Source of the DNA: an uncultured bacterium
GTDB lineage: Bacteria; Verrucomicrobiota; Verrucomicrobiia; Verrucomicrobiales; DEV007
DNA: 64,000 nucleotides
Direction of reading: 5' to 3'
NCBI GenBank assembly: GCA_963977015.1
Contig: CAXBMO010000026.1
Span: 1 to 64,000, forward strand
Positions within the stretch are counted from its first letter, which is position 1; each line of letters starts with the position of its first letter. Position numbers and translations under genes: made by a program. Below, in pieces: positions 7,255 through 20,123 of this stretch. The notes beneath the pieces were generated by a model. The model worked only from the letters and a program-made list of their open reading frames with translations, searched no databases and had not been told where the DNA came from.

Positions 7255-8454
7255 ATGGCCACACTGCTTTATCTCCACGGTATCAACGTTCGCGATGCCG
7301 TCTCACAGCTTACCGAAAAAGACGTTGCTCAAAAGTTATTGGGACATAGTCTTGTAACTATTCCGTGGGGAGTCGACACAAATGTCCGACTTCACGGAGG
7401 TGGGCTCTCCATTCCAGTAGCCCGAAAGTTCGCTCAGCCCACTAATCCTTGGCATCATATAGAAACACAGCCACTTCACGCGCTTCAAATTTTAATGATT
7501 CGACACATCGGGTCGGAGCTACATTCCGGTTCTCCGATGGCCAAAGACTTTCGACAGGAGTTGCTCAGCTGCTTAAGTCAGTTGCGAGATAAGGCCTCAG
7601 CCGCCGTTAATTCCGATTCCAGCTTTGAAGTGTTTACCGAAACGGCGGCTGGTTTGGAACTCAACTATTACATTCCTTCTGCCATTGATTGGCTGCTCTC
7701 CTGCGATTTGGACTCCAATCTTGTAGCCGTGCAATCTTCCAATGTACAAGAATACCGTGATGCTTTGGCGCGGGCGATCTTCTTTAGAGCTCGTCAGTTA
7801 CACCTCTACGAGAAATCTACATCTTCCTTCACTCAATCCGATTACGAGGTGGCCCTCGACGCTCTAGCGGAAGCCCTCCGTGGAACTGACCGGTTTCTGG
7901 GTGGTGTGAAGAGATTCTGGGACTCTGCATCAGGCTTGATTACAGGCATGGTTCGAAATCATTTCACAGAACTTGCCATTCCCGCAGTCGGTGACGTGCT
8001 CTTTTACCAAGCCCATTACCCGAATTTGCACCTCAGGATTCAAGACGTTCTGGATCAAGCTGGCAATCAACCGGTCATCATGATTGGCCATAGCCTCGGC
8101 GGCGTAGCCCTTTTTGATTTCCTTTGCCGAAATCCCTGTGATAACCAAGTTCACGGCCTGGTCACGTTCGGTTCTCAGGCACCGTTCTTCTACGAAATGA
8201 ACGTATTTGCGGATGGTGGTCTGCCTTTCGATCCAGAATCCAAAACTGCCGATCGATTGCCGCCACATTTTCCGGCGAAGTGGCTGAATATTTACGATCC
8301 GTTGGACTGGCTTTCGTTCATTGGCCGCCCGCTATTCGGCAATAGAGTAACGGATATAGAGATCGATACAAAATCGCGCAACCCGCTCGAAGCGCACGGG
8401 GCCTACAACCAAACTGCCGATTTCTGGAAGCACCTCCAAACCTTTCTCGCATGA
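7255..8454 (+). CDS. Alpha/beta-hydrolase (lipase-like) protein
   Basis: LYLHGI oxyanion region, GDVLFYQ, nucleophile elbow IGHSLGG, LVTFGSQ, WLNIYDPLDWLSF, AHGAY (Ser-Asp-His triad). Confidence 0.85.
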   Translation: MATLLYLHGINVRDAVSQLTEKDVAQKLLGHSLVTIPWGVDTNVRLHGGGLSIPVARKFAQPTNPWHHIETQPLHALQILMIRHIGSELHSGSPMAKDFRQELLSCLSQLRDKASAAVNSDSSFEVFTETAAGLELNYYIPSAIDWLLSCDLDSNLVAVQSSNVQEYRDALARAIFFRARQLHLYEKSTSSFTQSDYEVALDALAEALRGTDRFLGGVKRFWDSASGLITGMVRNHFTELAIPAVGDVLFYQAHYPNLHLRIQDVLDQAGNQPVIMIGHSLGGVALFDFLCRNPCDNQVHGLVTFGSQAPFFYEMNVFADGGLPFDPESKTADRLPPHFPAKWLNIYDPLDWLSFIGRPLFGNRVTDIEIDTKSRNPLEAHGAYNQTADFWKHLQTFLA

Positions 8455-9308
8455 GCCTGTCTACCACTCAGCCCCATGATCCCGTGACATTCCCGATCGA
8501 CTCAGGTTCGGTTCTTCTTATCCTCGCAGCGGCAACTTATCGCTATGACATCAATGAGTTGCCCTCCGTGACCAGTGACATTGCTGAAGGGGAAGCGTTC
8601 GCTGATCGCATAGGAATCCCACCTGCGCAACGCCATCTCATTTGCTGGGGAGAACCATCGGTCTGGAGTGGACAGTGCACTGTTGATCCGGACCTTCTAT
8701 TGACGTCTACAACCCTCCGCGATTTGGCTTTTGCTTTAAAGAAAGGCCCGCTTCCAACATCCGTGATTATCATGTGGGGTGGACATGGTTACTACTGCAC
8801 AGCATCGGAACGGGACCAGGTTGCCCTTGTTCATCCAGACAGCCGACTCAGTGAACGATGGGGAATCTATGAGAGTCAACTTCTTCGATGTTTTCAAAGT
8901 ATCTCAGCCCCCCAGCTCTACTTGTTGGATTGTTGCCAACAGATGGATGCCACCGAACTAAAGGACCCCGGCTCAATGATGGACCCGGGCGGAGAACAGG
9001 CGGAAGTACTGCCAGCAGCCACCTTATTTTTCCCTGGAGCCGCAAACTCAAAGAGCACGGGCGGACTGTGGAAAGCCTTCAGCCGTAAGGTATCGGCGCA
9101 TGGATCTTTGAACCTTAGGGAAGTTTATCATCAAATCCGCACGGACCAACAATACCCTCTTCTTCTGAATGTACGTTGGCCTGATGAACGTAGTTGGCTG
9201 AGGAGTTCCTCGTCTTCTCCATCAAACATCGCGAAGCCCCGAGAACTAAGCGAAACTGAAAAATTCTGGGAAGCCCAACGGAAAATCATTCAAGATTGGG
9301 GCGATTGA
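8451..9308 (+). CDS. Caspase-like (peptidase C14) protein
   Basis: His in IIMWGGHG and Cys in LYLLDCC with caspase-like spacing; ATGA overlap with the hydrolase gene. Confidence 0.7.
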   Translation: MSLSTTQPHDPVTFPIDSGSVLLILAAATYRYDINELPSVTSDIAEGEAFADRIGIPPAQRHLICWGEPSVWSGQCTVDPDLLLTSTTLRDLAFALKKGPLPTSVIIMWGGHGYYCTASERDQVALVHPDSRLSERWGIYESQLLRCFQSISAPQLYLLDCCQQMDATELKDPGSMMDPGGEQAEVLPAATLFFPGAANSKSTGGLWKAFSRKVSAHGSLNLREVYHQIRTDQQYPLLLNVRWPDERSWLRSSSSSPSNIAKPRELSETEKFWEAQRKIIQDWGD

Positions 9309-9389
9309 ATGCTCTTTACCAAACTTGGTTAGGATTTTTCGGATAGATGACAGTGTGAGCTCGGCAAGGGTTTAACCATTGGACTTGAG

Positions 9390-11954
9390 TTAGCCGAGGC
9401 GTTGTGCCAGCAAAACAATTGCCTTCATTTCTGCCTCCACTCTCTGACGCTTTTGTTTGCTCAATGAACGCTTGTTGCGTAACGAGGTTTCTTTCTTGCG
9501 GTAGCGTTCCCTCCAAAGCAACCCAATCTTGTGCGCATCACGGCCTTCCCAGCCTTCAATAATCTCTTCCACAGCATTGTAGAAGGGAGAGTTTTCGTTT
9601 TCTACCTCAGCAGTATCCGCAAGGGCATCTGCTAAGATCGAGTTAACCATGCTTTCGGCGTCTTTGGCTCCACGGAATCCCCAAAATGCCTCAATTTCAT
9701 CTTGAAGCACGAATGAAAGAGAATCATTAAGGTTCTCGTCTCGATATCGTGAAATATAGAACTCGCGGAATGAAGGGCGGAATTCGCACATCGCCTCGAA
9801 TGGCCCCTTCTCCGCATTTTTCCCTGCCAAGGCATGGCGAAACTTACGACTGACGATCGGGACAAACGCCACCGCGTAGTTCCACCGTGCGTGCTCGTCG
9901 TCTTTGTTTCTCCATTCTTCCAACCGGTCGAGCACTTCCAAGCATCGCTCAATCGATTGCGAGGATTCGGACAGCAACGCTCCGATGGCTGCGTTGCGCG
10001 CGTTGCTTTTCCCTCTACAGAGTATCTGAGAGAAGAATTCTAGAATATCAAATCCCTCCTCGTAACGCAACCGGGTGCTAATCTGGATGGCGATGTCCTC
10101 GTCTCGCGAATCGATTAAACTTCCCAGAAGTTTGGTGACGTCTCCAGCACTGGTATTTCGGATGATGGCGCGGCAAAGTTCCGCGATGCGAGAGATCAGA
10201 AAGCTTGATAAATTACGATTATGGTCATAGGCTCTGAACCACTCCACAATACCGTCCATATCATCGGTTCGCTGCAATTTTTCTCGTTCGAACTCATCTA
10301 GTGCGGCCACAAGATTCTTTGAAAAGTCTGTTAGTTCGCGCAGCCAGCCCTGATCTGTTTCCTCAGCAAATTGAGGAAACATAGACGCAAAGTAGTCAAC
10401 CAAAAATCTGACACTACGATCAGGCAATTCTGGGTCGAAAAGTATTTTGTGGGAGTAAATTTTTTGGAAGCCATCGAACGTAATAGGTTGTGACTGGAGT
10501 TGACGACGTAACTGTTCACGAATCACTGTACCGTCGAATTCGACCACCAAACTTCCGCGCTGATTGGGAAATAAGCCAATGGAGCATTCTTCCCATATGT
10601 CATCCCTATTTTGAAGCAAGAATTCGTTGGCCTCGACAAACTGCTCTTCAATTTGTTCTTCCACCTTCCCTTCTTTGCTTGTTGTGTGTTTCTTTACCTG
10701 GACCTTTTGCTTTTTGCCAATCAACAAGATATTTAGCACTTTATTGAAAACTGTCACCGGAATGCCCGGAAGGTAGGATACCAAAAAAAGGATAGCCTGA
10801 TGACACGGCTTTTTCAATAACACCCGAAGCTCGTCACCAAGTTCAACTTGAGGGGAATAGGCTGTGTTTTCGCGATCGTTTATTAGCTTTTCAAGACCTT
10901 CTGGGCCGTTTTTCTGTAGTTCTCTGCGAACATCGTTGTAAAATTCGAATGGATCTTGTGACCAGAGCTGAGACTGCCTTTGTCGCTGTAGTTCATGAAT
11001 ATGATTTACCGTTTTCTCGACTGAAAAATGCTTCAGGAGCTGTATTTCAAGTGCATCCAGTTCCCAACGAAATGTGTCGGTCTGGAGGAGACAATCTCGA
11101 AGATTGGGAATTGTGAAGCCTGAGTATATCAGGAACACAAACACTATCTCTTTTTGTTGCAGATATGGCTTAAGGTTTGCTGCCCCAGCCCCTAGTGTTC
11201 GGCTTGCAAAACCCTGCATCACGCCGTTGCGAACATGAAAAAATATCGCAGTTGGAACTTCCGAATAGGTTTCCGCGAAGGACTTGGCCGTGAAAGTATT
11301 GTCCAGCAACTCATCCCCGCTGTCGATATCAACTTGGAGGCATTTGTGTTTTGCCCTATGTAATTCTCGGGCCACCCGCTGGCCTGCCTCCACGAGCATT
11401 TGTTCATCAATCGACTCGATTACCGCCATCCTTGATTCCATGAGTTTTGAGACTTCTCCAAACCTAATATCGTAGCGTAGGTTGGAATAGAACACGACAT
11501 TATCAACCAGATCAGAAACTTTGAAATTCGGATTTTTTGTCGTGAATACTGGATTGGCCTTTTGTCCCCCGGCCAGCGATGCTTCGGCGGAACCTGGCCG
11601 GTAGTCATTCCTAAAAATATTGTAGTGGACATCCCGCTCAGCGACTATTCCTGTGTTTTCCTTGATAGTCGTTGCTTTGTTCTCCACCTTGGTAGGCTCA
11701 GCCTTATCCTTTGGAATTGCAGGAAGAGGACCATCCTGTACCGGTTGTTTCCGATCTGATGCAGGCCCTTGCTGCTCTCCAACGGCTGGTTCTTGGGCAA
11801 TTCCAGAAGCCGACTGTCCGCCTTCTGTTGCTGATTTATCAGACGGTGGTATTTCGGTGGGATTCCCTTCCGGGCTGGTGTCCGCTTCTGGTGACGGCAA
11901 ATTGCCGTCACCTTCGTCTCCAGGGGGCGTTTGATTTGTGTTTGACTCAGGCAT
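9390..11954 (-). CDS. Large protein: disordered N-terminus, possible inactive STAND-like NTPase domain, C-terminal helical repeats
   Basis: ~854 aa from ATG 11954 (4 bp after the upstream stop, preceded by GAGGAAGG); alpha/beta central region with no intact Walker A; all-helical C-terminus. Domain call is inference. Confidence 0.5.
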   Translation of the reverse strand: MPESNTNQTPPGDEGDGNLPSPEADTSPEGNPTEIPPSDKSATEGGQSASGIAQEPAVGEQQGPASDRKQPVQDGPLPAIPKDKAEPTKVENKATTIKENTGIVAERDVHYNIFRNDYRPGSAEASLAGGQKANPVFTTKNPNFKVSDLVDNVVFYSNLRYDIRFGEVSKLMESRMAVIESIDEQMLVEAGQRVARELHRAKHKCLQVDIDSGDELLDNTFTAKSFAETYSEVPTAIFFHVRNGVMQGFASRTLGAGAANLKPYLQQKEIVFVFLIYSGFTIPNLRDCLLQTDTFRWELDALEIQLLKHFSVEKTVNHIHELQRQRQSQLWSQDPFEFYNDVRRELQKNGPEGLEKLINDRENTAYSPQVELGDELRVLLKKPCHQAILFLVSYLPGIPVTVFNKVLNILLIGKKQKVQVKKHTTSKEGKVEEQIEEQFVEANEFLLQNRDDIWEECSIGLFPNQRGSLVVEFDGTVIREQLRRQLQSQPITFDGFQKIYSHKILFDPELPDRSVRFLVDYFASMFPQFAEETDQGWLRELTDFSKNLVAALDEFEREKLQRTDDMDGIVEWFRAYDHNRNLSSFLISRIAELCRAIIRNTSAGDVTKLLGSLIDSRDEDIAIQISTRLRYEEGFDILEFFSQILCRGKSNARNAAIGALLSESSQSIERCLEVLDRLEEWRNKDDEHARWNYAVAFVPIVSRKFRHALAGKNAEKGPFEAMCEFRPSFREFYISRYRDENLNDSLSFVLQDEIEAFWGFRGAKDAESMVNSILADALADTAEVENENSPFYNAVEEIIEGWEGRDAHKIGLLWRERYRKKETSLRNKRSLSKQKRQRVEAEMKAIVLLAQRLG

Positions 11955-11958
11955 AGTT

Positions 11959-14577
11959 CTAGGAACCTTCCTCACGATCAGTCGTATTAGTATTATCGGT
12001 CAAACGTGAGTAATCACTTGGTTGCGAACTATTCTTGGAATGATCTTCAATTCTAAGGTTCCCTAATTCCGACTGATCTTCCAGCGCCTTCAACTCTTCC
12101 TCCAAGGCGTTAAGGTCTTGAACGGTCTTGTCGAGCTTGATTTCATCACCGGGAAACCCGGATTCCTCATAATCTTTCTTTTGTTCTAGCAGCATCGCTT
12201 GGCGCTCAACGATCGCATTAATCCGGTTCTTCCGCATTTTGAGTTGAGCTCTACGAAACTCCTCCGCATCTTCTGCGGCTTTGAGTTCCAGCCGGCCAGT
12301 CCCCCTTTCCAAAAGATCAATGGAAATATCCAACCCAAAGGCTTTGGCAACGCTTCTCTTGGCGAATGGCGAGATCACACTGGCCTTTAGGTCTTCAACT
12401 TCGCGGATATCACGATATCGTAGTTTTGAGGAGCCCAGCGTTTGCAGGTTCTGGCGACAAACATTTACGATACTTTCACCTACCTTCGCAAAAAAGTCGT
12501 CATCGCTTAGGTGCCTAGCCGAGTTCTGAAATTTGCCCCAGGCCTCAGCATTGTTTGCTATTCCCTCAATACTAAATGTTATATTGAATGAAATTTTTTC
12601 CAAGGCGTTATCCAGAGGAGTCACCTCGAATCCCAACGTTTTAGGCCGAGACGTCAGAATGTCGTGAGTTTTGCTAAATTGTGTCTCTAGCGGGGAAAGG
12701 ATTATGGTGTAGCATTCAGCATCATATCCGTGAGGAGGCTGCTGTCCGAAGGCCTCCTCAATTGAAGCTTTGATCTGATCTCCGGGTGATGCTCCATCGT
12801 CCATGCTCTCCTCAAACTCTAGAAAAAGCTGTTGTGGTAACAGATTTCGGGTGACCGATTCCACCCGAACATTGATTAAACGTTTCATTTCGGACTCCCA
12901 GTCCCATGTGGGGGTGAGGTAGTCTCGCAATGATTGAAGGTTTCGAAGTCGCCCCTCCACGTTAACTCGGCATGGAAATCGCACCCTAGAATCCTTCGTC
13001 AAAAATCCTTCGTCGCGTTGATTACCCCATTGGGAAGAATTCGATGTAGATTTGCTTCCTGCTTGGACGGTTTCATCGGCAGTGGCAACTTCTTCTGTTT
13101 TGCCATTGTCACCTTCGCCAACAACTTGGAATTCGTCGTCGGAGCTCGGTTTGGGTGAGTCTTTGGAGGAACTTACCGATCCATTGGTTTCGCCTTCCAA
13201 ACCTTCTGGGTCGCCACCACGAGTAATCTCTAGGCGAAATCCTTCATCAATAAGCTTGCGGAGAGGAAGGTTGGGAATGCTGATGAGTTGGCGGACCACT
13301 AACCCGACATCGGCGGCTTGTTGTCTTACTGCAGATCCTATCCGCTGTTTGATAGGATCGAATGCTAGTAGCAAGTCGGTATAGGTGTGACCAAATAATT
13401 CTTTTTGCGTGCAACGATTCAAAATATCAGTAACCCAATTCTCGAAATTGGTGATTCCAGCTTGTTGGTATTTTGCGACCTCTGAAAGGTCCGTATCCAA
13501 TTGATGGCGAATTGAAACTTGGGTATCATCTGGTTGAACACGGCAAGAGACATCGTGTTCAAAGGTGTCATCAATTGTGGCAATTAAAGAGAAATTCGTG
13601 TGGAGTGCTAGGTGTTGGATACTCAAGCCATATTGATTGACAAATTGGTTTATGTGGCCTTCAAGACCCGCACGAACGCGCTCTGGCGACTTGTGAATAT
13701 CATCGATTGTAGGAGATCCTGCGAGCCATCTCTTCACTTCAGTGTCAATATTTCTCCGGAGATCTACAGGTGGAATATAAGTTTGGGAAGCATGCCCGTG
13801 TTCTTCAGCTGACATCAGGCCTATTTCATACCGAAATTGGATAGGCTCATTGGAAATGAATGTTTTGAAAGAGGGCGTTGAAAAGTACAAGATACCGTCG
13901 TAACTTGGGAAAGTCACTCCAGCGACTAACTGTAGTCCCAGTTGGCTGCTTGCTTTTTCAGCGAGAGTTCGTGCCAACGAATCCAATGCGGCAGGCGACA
14001 ATGCAGTGCCTTCTCCAACGTCTTGATGCAGTGAGTGGAGGATCGTCTCTTCGACAAATCGTAGAAAGATCTCATGTGGTTCTATAATGTCTCCCTGAAA
14101 GCCTAATCGTCCCCTAGCCAAGGACTCAACAAATTGCCGCTCTTTACTGCGAATGGGGCCGTGGATTTCAAACCAAATGTCCAACTCAATGGATTGACCT
14201 TGTAACCGCTCAAAGCGAAAATTACGAGGGGAGCAGGTTTGACGCCCTTCAAGAAACACAACGTAGTGACGCTGAAACTGCGCCGGATTAATAAAGCGAG
14301 TCCAGTTTACGGCCTTTTTGGTTTTTTCATCAATGGAAATGAGTAGCTCGTTGTCATTCAGAGACGAAGGTTTATCGGCTCCACGGGGAAGCATCTTCAC
14401 CAAAGGGGCAAGGTATGACTCAGCCACGGAAATAGAGGGTTTCCTTTCGTGGCTTTGAGTTGAGTCCACGACAGCAAAATCGTCGCTAGGGCGATTTGTG
14501 CCGAGTACTTTGAAAGCGTCTTGATTTGGCGTCTGATTGCTTTCGGTCTGGCCCAGAATTTTAAAGTCGTCGGACAT
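11959..14577 (-). CDS. Protein with ~5 tandem SPFH/band-7-like repeats and a C-terminal coiled coil
   Basis: ~110-aa units ending in QLGLQL, QYGLSI, DVGLVV, HGYDAE, AFGLDI; FLTKDSRVRF strand; heptad-rich C-terminus. Confidence 0.55.
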   Translation of the reverse strand: MSDDFKILGQTESNQTPNQDAFKVLGTNRPSDDFAVVDSTQSHERKPSISVAESYLAPLVKMLPRGADKPSSLNDNELLISIDEKTKKAVNWTRFINPAQFQRHYVVFLEGRQTCSPRNFRFERLQGQSIELDIWFEIHGPIRSKERQFVESLARGRLGFQGDIIEPHEIFLRFVEETILHSLHQDVGEGTALSPAALDSLARTLAEKASSQLGLQLVAGVTFPSYDGILYFSTPSFKTFISNEPIQFRYEIGLMSAEEHGHASQTYIPPVDLRRNIDTEVKRWLAGSPTIDDIHKSPERVRAGLEGHINQFVNQYGLSIQHLALHTNFSLIATIDDTFEHDVSCRVQPDDTQVSIRHQLDTDLSEVAKYQQAGITNFENWVTDILNRCTQKELFGHTYTDLLLAFDPIKQRIGSAVRQQAADVGLVVRQLISIPNLPLRKLIDEGFRLEITRGGDPEGLEGETNGSVSSSKDSPKPSSDDEFQVVGEGDNGKTEEVATADETVQAGSKSTSNSSQWGNQRDEGFLTKDSRVRFPCRVNVEGRLRNLQSLRDYLTPTWDWESEMKRLINVRVESVTRNLLPQQLFLEFEESMDDGASPGDQIKASIEEAFGQQPPHGYDAECYTIILSPLETQFSKTHDILTSRPKTLGFEVTPLDNALEKISFNITFSIEGIANNAEAWGKFQNSARHLSDDDFFAKVGESIVNVCRQNLQTLGSSKLRYRDIREVEDLKASVISPFAKRSVAKAFGLDISIDLLERGTGRLELKAAEDAEEFRRAQLKMRKNRINAIVERQAMLLEQKKDYEESGFPGDEIKLDKTVQDLNALEEELKALEDQSELGNLRIEDHSKNSSQPSDYSRLTDNTNTTDREEGS

Positions 14578-14588
14578 TGCTGAAATCG

Positions 14589-15383
14589 TTACGTAGGGTT
14601 GTTATTTTTTGGCCCTTTAAAGAGTCGGGCTACGAAAGATTGTGGAGGGCTCTTATTGATTCCATCGGAACCCGAATACCCGGTTGCGCGAGAGTAATTG
14701 TCACGATCGTTCGAGGTAGAACTGCTACCTTGCATCCGTTTTTGAAAATCACATTCGAAGCCAGAGCAATCGACCATGATTCCTCTGCAGGGAGCACTGT
14801 CTTTACCGTGAAAGACCCCCCACTGCTGAGTGTTTGGATTGAGAACTACCCCAATTTGCCATAGTTTACCAAATAGCTGTACCTGTGTGTCCCTGTCAGG
14901 CTCAGAGAAAAAAATCTGTAGTTCGTTGGGATGGGTATGATACCAACCAACCGTCCTGAGAAAAGGGTCGCCGAGCATCTTTTTGAGGCTATCCGCTTCT
15001 TGGAGTAGATCATTCCAAGCTGAGAAATTCATTTCGACACTCACCTCCGAGGAATGACTCTCCTTGCCGGGTATCGCATGCGTCGCAATGACGTTTAGGT
15101 TACTCATAGATAACCTAGGAAGTCCTATTTGACTTGGGTCGACAACCACTTCACCAATAAGGAGCCCGGCCTTTTCTTTCTGTCTAGTTCGATCATTTGT
15201 GCCCCAATTGATGTGATCGTATATAACCCGCCTTGCAGATGATTCAATTGTTACAAACGGACTGCTAACCAAACCGCTAGTTGTGCTTTCGTGAAACTCG
15301 CATCGATCATACGATGGCTGGTGCCTATATTCAAACGAGTGGCGTTTTTGTTCAGTATGGATTATATTGAATTCGTCTTCCAT
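14589..15383 (-). CDS. JAB/MPN+ metallo-isopeptidase (soluble)
   Basis: KEKAGLLIG Glu plus GWYHTHPNELQIFFSEPD (HxH..S..D JAMM motif). Confidence 0.9.
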   Translation of the reverse strand: MEDEFNIIHTEQKRHSFEYRHQPSYDRCEFHESTTSGLVSSPFVTIESSARRVIYDHINWGTNDRTRQKEKAGLLIGEVVVDPSQIGLPRLSMSNLNVIATHAIPGKESHSSEVSVEMNFSAWNDLLQEADSLKKMLGDPFLRTVGWYHTHPNELQIFFSEPDRDTQVQLFGKLWQIGVVLNPNTQQWGVFHGKDSAPCRGIMVDCSGFECDFQKRMQGSSSTSNDRDNYSRATGYSGSDGINKSPPQSFVARLFKGPKNNNPT

Positions 15384-15421
15384 TTTGGGACTCGAATATA
15401 CTACAATATCGACTTGAGGGG

Positions 15422-16756
15422 CTAGCTGTTCTCGGAGTCTCCCGATTCGGATTTTGTGGCCGTAGAGACATCTGCTTCGGGGGGGAGCGCTTCGGTTTTG
15501 GGTTTTGCGCCCTTGTTGTTTTCGATTTTTTGTTTAGCATCCTTGTTGTCTTCGGCTTTGGGTTTAGCGTCCTTGTCGTCTTCGGTTTTGGGTTTAGCGT
15601 CCTTGTTGTCTTCGGTTTTGGGTTTAGCGTCCTTGTTGTCTTCGACTTTGGGTTTAGCGTCCTTGTTGTCTTCGACTTTGGGTTTAGCGTCCTTGTTGTC
15701 TTCGACTTTGGGTTTTGCGTCCTTGTTGTCTTCGGATTTGGATTTTGTAACTTCGGTGTCTTGTGCTTTGGCGTTTGCTACCATCGTTTGATCACTCTGA
15801 TGTTGACTGCTAGTTGTAGAAAGAGTTCTGATGCTATCAGGTGGAATCGTGTTGTCGTCCGGATTAGTTGGAAATCCGCCAGAAGACACACTTCTCCTTA
15901 CTTCCTGAAGTTGTGTTTTTAGTTCCGTCAATTCGAACTTCAGATCTGAAACCTCGGAGGCCGCCCTTTCAAATTGCAGCCCTCGAAGACCGAGAAAACC
16001 ACCGACGATCAGTAGAATAGCCAGCGTAACAATTGCGATAATTTCCAATAGTGTTGTTCGACTCTGAGGGGACTGGACGATGATTTGAGGCTGGTTTTGG
16101 GAATTCATGATGAGGCCGGAGTCGTGATTGGAGTCGTGATTGGAGTCGTGATTGGAGAAACCGATAGGTTTGTTAGTTCTAAGGAACCCAAGGCAAGGGA
16201 GAGCGTTTTCACCGTGGAATGCACACCAAATTTCCCGATGTGGATTCAGAACAATTCCGAACTGCCAGTCCTCGCTAAAGTAGCGACGTTGCGTATCGCG
16301 GTCTGTGCCAGAAAAAAAGACATCAAGGTTGTTCGGGTGGGTGTGATACCAACCAATAATCCGAAGGTCGGGAGATGATTGAATTGCTTTATCCGCCACT
16401 TTGAGCATTTCATTCCAGGCATCGTAACCAAGATCAAGATGCACAGGGTTCCCGTCTCCTTGATGACCAGGTATCGCGCTGCGGGCTAGACCGATAACGT
16501 CCCCACCAATATCTAAGACTTGGCCAAGCAAAATTCCACCTTGCTCATTTCTGTTGAGACTAGTGGTTTGTCCCCAACCTATATGACCATTAATAATTTC
16601 AAAGGCCGAAGGTTCAACGATAACAATGTGCGTTGAACTAGTTCCAACTTGGCGATTAGAAACGGATTGAAAACCATCGAGTTGTAAGTCCTGAAAGCGA
16701 GCTGGTTCTGGGGAGTAAGGGGAAGACTCATCGATGATAGTTAGGGTGTCGTCCAT
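15422..16756 (-). CDS. JAB/MPN+ isopeptidase with TM helix, coiled coil and C-terminal 10-aa repeats
   Basis: NEQGGILLG; GWYHTHPNNLDVFFSGTD; TM LLEIIAIVTLAILLIVGGFLGL; KPKVEDNKDA repeats. Confidence 0.9.
   Translation of the reverse strand: MDDTLTIIDESSPYSPEPARFQDLQLDGFQSVSNRQVGTSSTHIVIVEPSAFEIINGHIGWGQTTSLNRNEQGGILLGQVLDIGGDVIGLARSAIPGHQGDGNPVHLDLGYDAWNEMLKVADKAIQSSPDLRIIGWYHTHPNNLDVFFSGTDRDTQRRYFSEDWQFGIVLNPHREIWCAFHGENALPCLGFLRTNKPIGFSNHDSNHDSNHDSGLIMNSQNQPQIIVQSPQSRTTLLEIIAIVTLAILLIVGGFLGLRGLQFERAASEVSDLKFELTELKTQLQEVRRSVSSGGFPTNPDDNTIPPDSIRTLSTTSSQHQSDQTMVANAKAQDTEVTKSKSEDNKDAKPKVEDNKDAKPKVEDNKDAKPKVEDNKDAKPKTEDNKDAKPKTEDDKDAKPKAEDNKDAKQKIENNKGAKPKTEALPPEADVSTATKSESGDSENS
15491..15746. 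repeat. 30-bp tandem repeat, 8 full units plus a partial one (encodes KPK[VTA]EDNKDA on the minus strand)
   Basis: Units TTCG(G/A)(T/C)TTTGGGTTTAGCGTCCTTGTTGTC begin at 15491, 15521 ... 15701. Confidence 0.95.
16118..16153. repeat. 12-bp tandem repeat x3 (SNHD) in the JAB-TM linker
   Basis: GGAGTCGTGATT three times. Confidence 0.9.
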
Positions 16757-16775
16757 TGTAAGAAGCTATTGGGGA

Positions 16776-17369
16776 TTAAATGATGTTAAAATCATCGGGT
16801 CCAGTTTCCTGTTTCCCTGAGGCACTAGAAATGTTGAAGATTTCAAAGGTTTCCTGCTCAACTTTCCCGGTTAAGTTTGGCTTTGGGGTTCGTGCCACCG
16901 GAAGCCGTCCACTATCTCGCATCTTGCAAAACCACTTTGCTTTTTCCGCATCACCATCTGTATAACTCTCGGGATTTGAAACCTCGGTATCAAATTCTAA
17001 AGTTCGAACCATTCTTACAACATGATCGACAAGGTCTATTTCAGAATCCCAGCTGCCCGCTCCTTCGCACCAACGACCGTCCCTCCACCAATTTGGATGA
17101 TAGGGAGCAGGCCTGGTGACCATCACAATTTCAGGTGATGATTCTGGGAAGGTTGAGGGCAGCTTCAGCCGTATTTCGTGGTTGTTCCGGAAATCAAAGC
17201 CGCTACTAATAACGGATTTGACCTCAAGCTTTAACTTGTATTCGGTAACATATGGAGGTGATCCGGAAACTACTTCCCAAGTTACCCACGGGCACTGTTG
17301 CTGGAATTTGACCATGTCACCGTATTCGTTTTTGAGGCGTAACCGGCGTTGTTTAGCAGAAAATGCCAT
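16776..17369 (-). CDS. Ubiquitin-conjugating enzyme E2 (UBC fold)
   Basis: RRLRLKNEY helix, LKLPSTFPESSPEI, HPN-x7-C (HPNWWRDGRWC; Cys codon 17067-17069), downstream W, NPES. Confidence 0.88.
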   Translation of the reverse strand: MAFSAKQRRLRLKNEYGDMVKFQQQCPWVTWEVVSGSPPYVTEYKLKLEVKSVISSGFDFRNNHEIRLKLPSTFPESSPEIVMVTRPAPYHPNWWRDGRWCEGAGSWDSEIDLVDHVVRMVRTLEFDTEVSNPESYTDGDAEKAKWFCKMRDSGRLPVARTPKPNLTGKVEQETFEIFNISSASGKQETGPDDFNII

Positions 17370-17372
17370 GAT

Positions 17373-18950
17373 TTAGATGGGTTGTGTGATTCCTGCTTGC
17401 GTTGCTGGAACGATTCGGAGAGCTGTATTTGATGCCACTCCCTGTTGCGAAAGTGCTGTGTTGGAGTCTAGGAGGATGCTCTCACCGCCGGTAGTAGCAA
17501 GAGAGTAATCTCCAGCCTTCAGAAAGTTCGCTTCTACGAGTTTTGCGATCACTCTTGATGGAGTCATAGATGAAGATATCTCCACGGTAATCTCCTTGCC
17601 GGTGGTGGGATGTACGAATGTCAGGGTCAATTTGTCGTTCATAGCTTTATCTATCTGAGAAAATTTATATCGTAAGGACTGTGGTGGACACAGGCGACTG
17701 GCTCGGTCCAAACTCAAGGTGTAGTAGTCAAAGTCATCTTTAACAGGCGAGAATACAGTGATGTAAGGGCCAAAGGGGAAACCTAGCTGTTGAATTGTCT
17801 TGTCTAGCACATTATTCTCAGAGGTAAGATCAATGGATTCTAAGGTGTGAGTTTCGTAACTGGTCTCCCCAATCACCGCGTTGTGATCCTCAAAAATCTT
17901 TGCGACCTCATCTTGAGTCATTGTGAAAATGGGACGGTATACGGGAATCTCTACTCCGGTTTCTAACACAAAACTTTTCACAAACGTAGTGTGTGTTATC
18001 TCTAGGCTACAGTTTTCGCCTGAATGCTCTGTTGTCGTTACGGCATTTAAAAAATCACGGACGGTGCAACTACTTGGGAGAGGGACCTCCCAATTGGGTG
18101 TGATGGGGCTTAATGGTTCAGTTGTTTCTGAAATGTTCGCATAACCAAAAGAATCGAGGCTATTTGACATTCCTTGAAAGAAGAGTCGCTTTCCGATCGC
18201 TAGATTCTGCTTGCAAAGGTGCTTTACGGCTTCCTGAACTTGGAGGCCTGAAACAAGCGTTGCAGCAATCTGTGTGGTCGCTACCCGACTCTCCTTCGCC
18301 GCTTGGACTTTAAATCCAAAACAAGAGTTACGATCTACCGCATTTTGGAGTTCATTCTTACTTAGAGTCGATTCGTAGGAAATCAGTGAATCCGGGCTAA
18401 AAAAAGTCACAGAGAGCCCCAACTCGTGGATGCCCGCGTCAATCCAGGGGATACCAGCTAAACGACAATTGCGATCAATTGCCAATCTTGCTCCAACATT
18501 ATCCAAGCAACCCAAAACGACATCCATCTCAGCGTAAATTGAAGGTCCTAGATCTCTAGTTACGTCCCCATGATACCACTCAATTTCGAATGACGGATTG
18601 ACAGCAAGCTCTCGAACTCGACGAGCTGCAACTTCGACCTTTTTTTTCCCAATGTCCTCTCTCCGAAAAAGTACAGTTCTTGAGAGATTAGATCTTTCGA
18701 CTGTGTCAAAATCGAGCGCGAAAACGTAACCGAATCCCAGTAGTGCGAGGTTTTTAAGCGTTTCGTTCCCGACAGCCCCAGTGCCGATAACCATTACTCT
18801 TGAATCTCTGAGGCGTTTTTGATCCCACCACTCGATACGTTCTTGGCGATCTACAGGGTTTTCGTCCGGATCGTAAACGTTCAAAACCGAGAAGTTATCG
18901 TCGGCCGTCGTTGAATTAATTATTCCGGTCTTCACTGTTTCCATTGCCAT
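17373..18950 (-). CDS. ThiF/E1 ubiquitin-activating enzyme fused to a C-terminal ubiquitin-like domain
   Basis: RQERIEWWDQ, VIGTGAVG, DFDTVERSNLSR, GCLDN, putative catalytic Cys in DRNSC; last 89 aa (MNDKLTLTFVHP...LRIVPATQAG-ITQPI) show a beta-grasp pattern. Start at 18950 or 18944. Confidence 0.88.
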   Translation of the reverse strand: MAMETVKTGIINSTTADDNFSVLNVYDPDENPVDRQERIEWWDQKRLRDSRVMVIGTGAVGNETLKNLALLGFGYVFALDFDTVERSNLSRTVLFRREDIGKKKVEVAARRVRELAVNPSFEIEWYHGDVTRDLGPSIYAEMDVVLGCLDNVGARLAIDRNCRLAGIPWIDAGIHELGLSVTFFSPDSLISYESTLSKNELQNAVDRNSCFGFKVQAAKESRVATTQIAATLVSGLQVQEAVKHLCKQNLAIGKRLFFQGMSNSLDSFGYANISETTEPLSPITPNWEVPLPSSCTVRDFLNAVTTTEHSGENCSLEITHTTFVKSFVLETGVEIPVYRPIFTMTQDEVAKIFEDHNAVIGETSYETHTLESIDLTSENNVLDKTIQQLGFPFGPYITVFSPVKDDFDYYTLSLDRASRLCPPQSLRYKFSQIDKAMNDKLTLTFVHPTTGKEITVEISSSMTPSRVIAKLVEANFLKAGDYSLATTGGESILLDSNTALSQQGVASNTALRIVPATQAGITQPI

Positions 18951-19300
18951 TTGCACTCGAGTTCACCACATTCCCAATTTGAATTACCTAGCTCTTTTAT
19001 GAGTTTACTCTTACATTGTGGACATTTAGAAGGCTTACCTTCACTGATTATAGCGAAACTTGTGGATCCAACACTTGCGGGGGTAGGGCTTGAAATTACC
19101 CTAAAGTGATCGTTTTCAACTGTACGGCGGTTTTGTGGAGCGGGCACGGGGGATGTCCCCATAAAGGCTGAATTGTTGTTGGTGACCGTCGGTGGGGTCC
19201 TGTTTGAGTTTTTGATGTGCAGCCACCTAGCCGCGCTGACTACAATGGCGAGCACTACAGCAAAGATTAAAAAAAATCCGAAACCCCAATCTGCGATCAC
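18932..19300 (-). CDS. Single-pass membrane protein with C-terminal Zn ribbon
   Basis: N-terminal TM; KPSKCPQCK...WECGELEC; overlaps the E1 start. Confidence 0.75.
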   Translation of the reverse strand: MIADWGFGFFLIFAVVLAIVVSAARWLHIKNSNRTPPTVTNNNSAFMGTSPVPAPQNRRTVENDHFRVISSPTPASVGSTSFAIISEGKPSKCPQCKSKLIKELGNSNWECGELECKWQWKQ

Positions 19301-19385
19301 ACTGCGAATGTGAAGTGGACTGAAATGAAGTCAAAAAAAAAATAAACTTTTAGGGTGTGTAGTGTAATTCTAATTCTTATCGGCG

Positions 19386-19916
19386 TCAGGCCCACCAGTG
19401 CTCACACTCGATGCACCGCCAACCACTTCTTGAATGCTCAGTAATTCTGGTCCCCTTACAGATTGGGCATTTTTGTGGCTTGGTGACCGAAAGCACAGTT
19501 ACCGATTCATCTGGATGTGCCCAATCAGTCGGAAGCTGAATTGGTTCAGCCAGGCGGTGACCGGAGAGTAGATTAATTCTTGGATTTGATCCAAATTTGT
19601 TAGAACCAGTGGTTCCGGGCAGGATACCACACTCAATAATCCACCAGATAATTCCCACGTAGGGAATCAAGGTAATTAGGATCCACCATCCTGACCTGTT
19701 GCGATCATGCCAACGCTTTGTCTGAATCGCGATACACATCCAAGCTGCAGGGATGAATGCAAAGAAAAATGCTGCACCCGAACCAAAAATTGCTTCCACT
19801 ATCGAATAAATTATTAACCCTGAAATTATCACTAGTGGGCAGAATTTCCAGAACAGGTTGCGTCCTATTCTTCCTTGGAGTTGGAACAAAATGTGACTGG
19901 GCTTCATAGCTCGCAT
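19386..19916 (-). CDS. DUF805 membrane protein with C-terminal Zn ribbon
   Basis: GRIGR..FW, KRWHDRNRSGWW, PGTTGSNKFG (DUF805); KPQKCPICK...WRCIEC. Confidence 0.85.
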   Translation of the reverse strand: MRAMKPSHILFQLQGRIGRNLFWKFCPLVIISGLIIYSIVEAIFGSGAAFFFAFIPAAWMCIAIQTKRWHDRNRSGWWILITLIPYVGIIWWIIECGILPGTTGSNKFGSNPRINLLSGHRLAEPIQLPTDWAHPDESVTVLSVTKPQKCPICKGTRITEHSRSGWRCIECEHWWA

Positions 19917-20123
19917 TCTTCACTTATCATGTTTCGAAACTGGACCGGTCAGGATCAAAGGTGTCTGCCTAGTTAATATGAATCACCGCTATTCAAACAT
20001 TGTTCAAGTCATGGATTCTGGAAGATCGCATTGAGTCCCTAAACGGTGTCTTTGGCGTGACCTCTCCGGGGGAAGTTCACTGTCGAATTTATCGGCAGTG
20101 CGGCGGCTCTCAACACGACCTAC

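Follow-up and report, generated by a model that had tools for sequence, protein, structure and literature searches.

A short F-x-[I/V] motif shared by the components of a bacterial ubiquitin-like conjugation operon is a candidate docking peptide for the operon's own ubiquitin-like protein

We analysed a 64,000-nucleotide stretch of DNA from an uncultured bacterium of the phylum Verrucomicrobiota (GenBank assembly GCA_963977015.1, contig CAXBMO010000026.1, positions 1 to 64,000 of the forward strand; hereafter the window). A run of eight genes at 9390-19916, all on the minus strand, encodes a complete ubiquitin-like conjugation system. Nearly every component of this operon except the ubiquitin-like protein (Ubl) itself carries a short peptide motif in a flexible terminus or linker. 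The core of this motif, F-x-[I/V], is a family trait that occurs at fixed positions in the homologous proteins of other operons, and the charged residues that flank it change sign in concert between systems. We infer from these sequences that the motif may serve as a docking peptide for the operon's own Ubl, and we assign a probability of about 50% to this reading. It appears to be a conserved short linear motif (SLiM), similar to the SUMO-interacting motif (SIM) and the LC3-interacting region (LIR), that is undescribed in bacteria.

Motif copies are concentrated in the operon

The motif had been described in an original prediction as the pattern [DE]-x-F-x-[IV]-[ILV], with copies confined to termini and low-complexity linkers. 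All of the copies listed in that prediction were found where they had been reported, all on the minus strand (Table 1). Their placement was also confirmed, as they lie at the N-terminus of the E1 enzyme, in the C-terminal tail of the E2 enzyme, in the linkers of the zinc-ribbon (ZnR) proteins, and in the low-complexity N-terminus and a linker of a large protein, P872. The pattern matches eight times in the 2,602 residues of seven operon proteins. In a crude proteome of open reading frames (ORFs) from the same genome, the background was 265 matches in 2,102,581 residues, or 0.126 per 1,000 amino acids (aa). The operon would thus be expected to contain 0.33 matches, against the 8 observed; the Poisson tail for at least 8 matches is 2.5e-9, which is not a formal P value because the pattern was defined after inspection of the data. 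The operon is furthermore the densest 12-kb cluster of the pattern in the genome (9 hits, the next best having 6), which upholds the claim that the motif is real and enriched over the genomic background. The ninth match lies inside a second large protein, P861, at 10041-10058; it is non-terminal and may be a chance occurrence. The second-densest cluster of the pattern is located on contig C24:84225-92531, with 6 matches in 8.3 kb.

The motif core is conserved at fixed positions across the family

We compared the operon with related operons in 80 metagenome loci and two loci from metagenome-assembled genomes (MAGs). At least 577 E1 homologs were found at E <= 1e-20 and, according to the names of their sources, the E1 family occurs in Bacteroidota, Cyanobacteria, Planctomycetes, Pseudomonadota and other groups. 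In an alignment of 119 of these homologs, the phenylalanine of the motif (F18 in the window) is present in 116 sequences and is followed at position +2 by isoleucine or valine in 115. This phenylalanine is situated 14 residues before the DRQ box, a spacing that is exact in 111 of the 119. The position preceding it (-1) is occupied by lysine or arginine in 85 of the 119 sequences, and position +3 is mostly asparagine, lysine, threonine, serine or glutamate.

The E2 tail shows a comparable degree of conservation. F175 is invariant in all 26 rows of the alignment, the consensus of the tail is PDPTxxRFxxxxxxKKKFxI, and two motif copies are usually present, the tails reading F-x-I-K/Q. Among the E2s of the related loci, F.[IV] occurs within the last 30 aa in 25 of 38 proteins, compared with 17 of 188 interior windows. 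For E2 representatives at 50% identity the corresponding counts are 34 of 87 tails and 51 of 396 interior windows (odds ratio 4.3, p 8e-8).

The remaining carriers follow the same arrangement. Many short homologous JAB peptidases have (K/R)(K/R)F-x-I as their opening sequence. The homologous small ZnR proteins, about 20 in number and in several cases encoded directly upstream of E1, have a transmembrane (TM) or amphipathic N-terminus and one to four motif copies in the linker, the last of which lies about 10 aa before the first cysteine. Homologs of P872 were recovered in five other loci by phmmer searches within the loci (two of them near-identical), while a word-index search recovered only P872 itself; the homolog in locus L022 has four N-terminal copies with basic flanks. 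As an independent means of detecting the motif, we used a position-specific scoring matrix (PSSM) trained solely on E1 N-termini. This matrix gave 0.99 hits per 1,000 aa in E2, 0.99 in JAB, 3.95 in ZnR and 1.10 in P872 homologs, against 0.17-0.23 in flanking genes and 0.063 in the genome of the window.

The motif is therefore present in orthologous operons, as had been predicted, in that it is conserved in the E1, E2 and ZnR proteins of relatives and the PSSM agrees. Several of the features first ascribed to it did not hold for the family as stated. The acidic flanks, originally part of its pattern, are a peculiarity of this operon, since the relatives usually have basic flanks of the KKFxIK type with a charge of +1 to +3 (as in the E1 position -1 and the KKKFxI of the E2 tails). 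The proposed LIR-type spacing of anchors at positions 0 and +3 is likewise replaced in the family by conservation of 0 (F) and +2 (I/V), with +3 mostly polar; this F-x-[I/V] core is an alternating pattern, which suits a β-strand. Finally, the carriers had been called otherwise unrelated, whereas one copy in fact stands at a fixed distance from each folded domain.

A distant subfamily (loci L063, L064, L067, L068 and L073) encodes several E2 and Ubl paralogs per locus. There, an I-x-I core of the PKINII type replaces F-x-I jointly in E2 tails, JAB N-termini and ZnR linkers.

Charge complementarity points to the Ubl as the candidate receptor

Within one system, the flanks of all motif copies share one sign; those of the window have a mean charge of -2.0. 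This shared sign, together with the joint change from F-x-I to I-x-I across different proteins, argues for one common receptor. We regard the Ubl as the best candidate for this receptor because its acidity complements the usual basic flanks and because a switch in charge maps to it. The median net charge per 100 aa is -5.9 for the Ubl, -1.9 for E1, +1.8 for E2, -2.6 for JAB and +11.8 for ZnR, so that the Ubl is the sole strongly acidic component family-wide; the Ubl of the window has a value of only -1.1.

Acidic residues have been lost from the window's Ubl both at the end of strand β2 and on helix α1, and α1 has acquired arginine and lysine. The net charge of this helix is +1; in 33 other operons it lies between -1 and -4. 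Acidic flanks are also found in L087, a distant system whose α1 is likewise basic (+2). The two other acidic-flank systems, P0233 and P0247, are representatives of natural Ubl-E2 fusions with acidic tail motifs, and their α1 charges are 0 and +3, respectively. In the remaining 38 systems the charge of α1 ranges from -4 to 0 (Mann-Whitney p = 4e-4, uncorrected for phylogeny). We also scanned the components with sliding windows of 12 alignment columns, scoring those in which the window's system and L087 both exceed all other systems in positive charge. In the Ubl, 16 of 68 such windows have this signature and form one block extending from the end of β2 through α1. Elsewhere the signature was found in 0 of 319 windows in E1, 0 of 144 in E2 and 1 of 140 in JAB, the last an isolated one. 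The acidic-flank state of the window looks derived, as a quick E1 tree puts its system at a nested position among those with basic flanks.

These observations bear on a mechanism in which the motif would add as a β-strand to the edge strand β2 of the Ubl, beside helix α1. In this arrangement the F and the I/V would become buried, with the flanking charges paired to residues of opposite sign on the Ubl. Through single copies tethered at a fixed distance, E1, E2, JAB and the zinc ribbon could keep the Ubl (or a protein modified with it) close to each active site, while the SPFH-like scaffold and the membrane ZnR proteins, with their arrays of copies, could concentrate the Ubl at the membrane. 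The original prediction of a Ubl-docking or common hub-binding motif is thus retained in part: charge complementarity and the β2/α1 charge switch favour the Ubl over the other components, and the receptor itself is kept as a candidate. More tentatively, and with somewhat less confidence than in docking as such, we propose a broader scheme. One motif would wire E1, E2, the deubiquitinase-type JABs, the membrane ZnR adaptors and the SPFH-like scaffold to the β2/α1 groove of the Ubl, the charges of flank and groove would co-evolve, and the membrane arrays would make the Ubl a multivalent hub. SIM/LIR-type peptides that read a Ubl would in that case have been invented in prokaryotes, either before SUMO and Atg8 signalling or in parallel to it.

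Structure predictions and evidence that weighs against Ubl docking

We modelled the E1-Ubl protein of the window with AlphaFold2 (AF2), using 119 E1 rows. The E1 part was modelled well, with a predicted local distance difference test score (pLDDT) of 84.8, while the Ubl part was poor because rows for the Ubl were lacking. AF2 was also applied to a natural Ubl-E2 fusion (L013:3349-4134), for which the overall pLDDT was 94.1. The Ubl of this model has β-grasp topology, with strands at residues 3-9 and 16-22 and a helix at 27-36. Since β1 starts at residue 3, the Ubl of the Ubl-E2 fusion model has no Atg8-type N-terminal helices; the length of the Ubl in the family is 82-90 aa. A complex prediction for the window's Ubl with residues 153-197 of the E2 tail gave scores of 0.20 and 0.15 against a mark of 0.32, in runs without controls, and counts neither for nor against docking.

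Natural fusions were noted in related loci at L016:8137-9531, L023:4644-5489, L051:5062-6096 and L013:3349-4137, Ubl-E2 and Ubl-Ubl-E2 being among them. Another of these fusions consists of a Ubl-like domain, an immediately adjoining motif copy and a large C-terminal domain that is sirtuin-like by eye only. In a further one, a Ubl is joined to a domain without known family, and the protein ends in two motif copies.

Several results weigh against docking to the Ubl. In the models, the motif copies formed no strand: residues 1-20 of the E1 had a pLDDT of 50-66, with the motif copy undocked and without a strand in the monomer model of E1-Ubl, and the tail of the Ubl-E2 fusion, which follows the last helix, reached a pLDDT of only 67-70, again without a strand. 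The fixed spacing of the copies is a second difficulty, since a docking peptide is not obviously in need of a fixed distance from its domain. At the N-termini of JABs, the motif count was 10 of 31 against 109 of 477 interior windows, which is not a significant enrichment, although this count is crude because start codons are uncertain there. The remaining objections concern the charge switch. The number of independent events behind it may be no more than two, and the quick E1 tree, in which L087 is a long outer branch, requires no more than a single origin. Over all operons, the charge of the flanks is weakly rank-correlated with that of Ubl α1 (rho -0.30, p 0.08); the charge of the whole Ubl domain gives a similar value (rho -0.33, p 0.09), and strand β1 gives a stronger one than α1 (rho -0.49 to -0.61). 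The systems are not independent samples, because they are related by descent, and the segments and classes were defined after inspection of the data.

Alternative explanations

An unlikely alternative is that the motif docks on another shared part, such as the C-terminal domain of E1, the E2, the JAB or its N-terminal domain, or the zinc ribbon, and thereby assembles a complex without the Ubl. A fixed distance between copy and domain suits strand exchange between neighbours in a defined complex, and the copy that precedes the ribbon might belong to the ribbon fold itself. There is also a precedent in UBA5, which binds its E2 through a separate tail peptide, according to the part of PMC8304084 consulted. 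The charge signature is, however, absent from E1 and E2 and limited to a single segment in JAB, as counted in the scan above. The usual basic flanks would be repelled by the zinc ribbon, which is strongly basic (+11.8 per 100 aa), and by the slightly basic E2; moreover, E1, E2, JAB and ZnR are themselves carriers of the motif.

We consider it improbable that the motif is a self-pairing sticky strand, whose copies zip together so that the components co-assemble as a cluster or condensate on the SPFH-like and membrane scaffold. Alternating hydrophobic residues with charged 'gatekeeper' flanks are typical of strand-forming segments, a description that fits the motif, and arrays of three to four copies exist on P872, on its homolog in L022 and in ZnR linkers. 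Flanks of the same sign within each system nevertheless oppose the pairing of copy with copy, and self-pairing leaves unexplained why the charge of the Ubl changes alongside that of the flanks.

A role as a basic-hydrophobic membrane patch, or as a degradation or sorting signal, is judged improbable to a slightly greater degree. Clusters of basic with aromatic or aliphatic residues of the KKFxIK type could bind acidic lipids, and several of the carriers are membrane proteins or begin with a TM or amphipathic helix. The copies of the window, such as DDFNII, are acidic and could not attach to anionic membranes, yet they keep both the F-x-[IV] core and its positions. Copies at extreme termini resemble degrons, whereas internal copies at fixed distances from folded domains fit poorly with such a function.

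That the copies are chance or compositional repeats without function is suggested by the definition of the pattern after data inspection and by the single, probably fortuitous copy in P861, but this explanation, to which we give almost no weight, is refuted by conservation across the family, with genome-level enrichment, F at fixed positions in 116 of 119 E1s and 26 of 26 E2s across phyla, and independent detection by a PSSM from another protein family.

Gene content of the operon and its surroundings

The canonical features of such a system are all present as judged from sequence and models: a ThiF-domain E1, an E2 with HPN and a catalytic-type Cys, a β-grasp Ubl with a terminal Gly, and JAB peptidases (Table 1). 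Most of the gene labels in the original prediction found support in Pfam, namely DUF805, ThiF for the E1 and the two JABs, with the E2 supported only by a sub-threshold match to UQ_con. In the E2 alignment, H91, N93 and C101 are invariant and P92 is nearly so. The four-cysteine ribbon at the C-terminus of the TM-anchored ZnR protein was identified by reading the sequence. E1 and Ubl form one ORF with no stop between them, the junction being near 17642-17660, whereas more than 40 related operons encode them separately. Free Ubl may be produced from an internal start, or the E1 may carry its own Ubl. The Ubl terminates in ATQAG followed by five residues, and the Gly of ATQAG is probably the end of the mature protein. 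The C-terminal part of the TM-JAB (15422-15800, minus strand) contains about seven tandem ten-residue units of the KPKxEDNKDA type, rich in Lys, Asp and Glu.

Neither P872 nor P861 matched a family in Pfam or PADLOC. P872 probably belongs, as a divergent member, to the SPFH/Band-7 proteins. In a protein atlas, its feature score was 0.94 to a cluster with 14% Band_7, with TM-scores below 0.5; two of the five members of its family match PF01145 (best 5.7e-5) while P872 itself does not, and a profile search against the PDB gave a stomatin homolog at an E value of only 0.13. The SPFH label originally given to it is accordingly plausible from its relatives, and falls short of being established for P872 itself, which has no Pfam match. 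Homologs of P861 accompany those of P872 beside the same Ubl operons (L015, L021/L022, L024, L049 and L079), and the protein atlas provides a lead, and only a lead, to an nSTAND-like NTPase.

The G+C content of the eight-gene run is 46%, compared with 57-60% in its flanks; on a larger scale, the stretch from about 8000 to 20000 has 46-51% against 54-63%. Homologs of the E2 were found in 7 of 401 genomes of the window's phylum, its own genome included, the other six matches being weak. Taken together, the low G+C content and the rarity of E2 homologs in the phylum suggest that the operon is a horizontally acquired island. Among 401 genomes around a Tannerellaceae MAG, E2 matches occurred in 4. 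No tRNA genes were found in window positions 1-26000. At the edge of the island, a divergently oriented ORF of 285 aa (8451-9308, plus strand) has no Pfam match and a sub-threshold PADLOC match to MTase_II (E 0.0056). The spacing of a His and a Cys in this ORF may resemble that of caspase-like peptidases.

Table 1. Genes of the operon and copies of the motif, with positions in the window.
Feature	Position	Strand	Remarks
DUF805 membrane protein with C-terminal Zn ribbon	19386..19916	-	Pfam DUF805 1.4e-21
Small TM-anchored Zn-ribbon protein (TM-ZnR)	18932..19300	-	Pfam zinc-ribbon-type matches sub-threshold only
E1, ThiF-type adenylation domain, fused in frame to Ubl	17373..18956	-	Pfam ThiF 4.4e-45
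Ubl, β-grasp domain, candidate receptor	17373..17642	-	G84 nearly invariant (41-Ubl alignment)
E2, UBC-like, HPN...C	16776..17369	-	Pfam UQ_con sub-threshold 0.0051
JAB peptidase with TM segment and KPKxEDNKDA-type repeat tail (TM-JAB)	15422..16756	-	Pfam JAB 1.5e-6
Soluble JAB peptidase	14589..15383	-	Pfam JAB 9.2e-9
P872, candidate divergent SPFH/Band-7 scaffold	11959..14577	-	No Pfam match of its own
P861, large protein without family assignment	9390..11975	-	Homologs co-occur with P872 homologs
Motif, P872 N-terminal array (residues 3, 20, 32)	14554-14571, 14503-14520, 14467-14484	-	
Motif, P872 linker copy (residue 481)	13120-13137 (DDEFQVV 13120-13140)	-	
Motif, soluble JAB N-terminal copy	15360-15377	-	
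Motif, E2 C-terminal copy DDFNII	16779-16796	-	
Motif, E1 N-terminal copy	18882-18899 (DDNFSVL to 18902)	-	
Motif, TM-ZnR copy DHFRVI	19094-19111	-	
Looser copy, E2 tail, ETFEIF	16836-16853	-	Aligned with family-invariant F175
Looser copy, TM-ZnR, TSFAII	19046-19063	-	Pre-ribbon slot
Degenerate copy, DUF805-ZnR, DESVTVL (V replaces F)	19491-19511	-	Pre-ribbon slot
Degenerate copy, JAB-TM, MDDTLTII (L replaces F)	16733-16753	-	N-terminus, where many relatives carry a copy

Significance

Eukaryotic signalling is held to be marked out by the non-covalent recognition of ubiquitin-like proteins through short peptides such as SIM, LIR and the UFM1-interacting motif (UFIM). The present motif is a data point on the origin of such Ubl-SLiM recognition. 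Our literature search, which included parts of Corbett-lab preprints, Iyer et al. 2006 and Kaur et al. 2020 and whose scope did not extend to Burroughs et al. 2011 or to supplements, gave no such bacterial motif. A large family spread over several phyla, with the motif at fixed positions on all of its enzymes and adaptors, offers a testable handle on how the cascade is assembled and targeted to membranes. The acidic version in the window and the common basic version form a natural charge-swap pair for specificity, and the motif is also a simple sequence signature by which clients and adaptors of such operons can be sought. If it does bind the Ubl, the arrays on ZnR and SPFH-like proteins suggest multivalent recruitment at the membrane.

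Comparison with known systems

The operon was compared with published systems on the basis of the sections covered of each cited source. Like the bacterial Bil, Bub and CBASS Cap2/Cap3 operons (bioRxiv 10.1101/2024.11.21.623966), it combines an E1, an E2, a Ubl and a JAB. Its PADLOC matches were partial and weak: BilD at 7.4e-8 over 112 aa, E1-E2 at 4e-16 over 134 aa (the Rossmann part), E2 at 0.0062, and JAB at 9e-5 for one of the two JABs. No Pfam match to DUF6527 was found in any of nine window proteins. A profile built from the 119 E1 homologs matched, among solved structures, the eukaryotic Uba1, SAE2, UBA7 and UBA6 at 1e-38 to 1e-31, against 1e-27 to 1e-25 for ThiF/MoeB. The weak PADLOC matches and an E1 profile nearer to eukaryotic E1s place the system outside Bil, Bub and CBASS as these are defined in the sections of that preprint we covered, and by its sequence we classify it as none of the three. 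In those sections, moreover, no shared peptide motif is described for these systems. The eukaryote-like ubiquitin operon of the Caldiarchaeum type likewise has a separate Ubl, an E1, an HPN...C E2, a JAB/Rpn11-like peptidase and a small zinc protein (PMC5654768, PMC6043591; in the parts covered). Compared by description only, the zinc protein differs in that the one studied here is a membrane-anchored four-Cys ribbon with the motif in its linker, and not a RING.

At the level of the motif, the E1 UBA5 provides a parallel, in that a LIR/UFIM-type motif outside its adenylation domain binds its own Ubl, UFM1, by forming a β-sheet between the two proteins (PMC7615515; Padala et al. 2017, by its title as listed in PMC8304084). 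The UBA5 motif is C-terminal with W/I/L anchors, whereas the E1 motif described here is N-terminal, ahead of the DRQ box, and has further copies on E2, JAB, ZnR and SPFH-like proteins.

The LIR, also called the Atg8-interacting motif (AIM), pairs as a strand with β2 of an Atg8-family Ubl, and its acidic flanks meet basic residues of a helix (PMC7615515). ATG4 and other core autophagy proteins carry LIRs, that of ATG4 being C-terminal, and the LIR-like motif of UBA5 binds UFM1 (same source). The present motif is likewise found on a protease and other core machinery and, in the window, has an aromatic residue after acidic ones. The copies in the window fit the LIR/AIM expression, but assignment to that class fails for the family: LIRs are anchored at 0 and +3 whereas this family is anchored at 0 and +2, acidic flanks are seen in the window and not in most relatives, and the Ubl, as modelled in the Ubl-E2 fusion, lacks the two N-terminal helices that form pocket HP1 in Atg8-family Ubls.

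In the SUMO pathway, SIMs occur in disordered extensions of the E1, the proteases and the E3s; they attach as an added β-strand, with a charged sub-site flanking a hydrophobic groove (PMC12751080). The present motif shares with them a short hydrophobic strand-forming core, charged flanks, a position in disordered extensions of the E1, the protease and ligase-type factors, frequent occurrence in multiple copies, and a binding mode that is proposed to be the same. The location in disordered regions holds here for the E1 N-terminus (pLDDT 50-66), the E2 tail, the ZnR linkers and P872. The block with the charge signature, from the end of β2 through α1, corresponds to the surface that SIMs use on SUMO, and the copies in the window, an acidic flank with F-x-[IV]-[ILV], resemble SIMs and are hydrophobic at three of four core residues, where a SIM core has at least three of the V/I/L type. 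The differences are that the family core is hydrophobic at two positions only, 0 (aromatic) and +2; that most systems have the opposite polarity, the flanks being basic and the Ubl acidic; that the E2 itself carries two copies; and that the system is bacterial and its binding a proposal. Overall, the motif resembles the SIM most, followed by the LIR and the UBA5 motif, and on these features it belongs to neither the SIM nor the LIR class.

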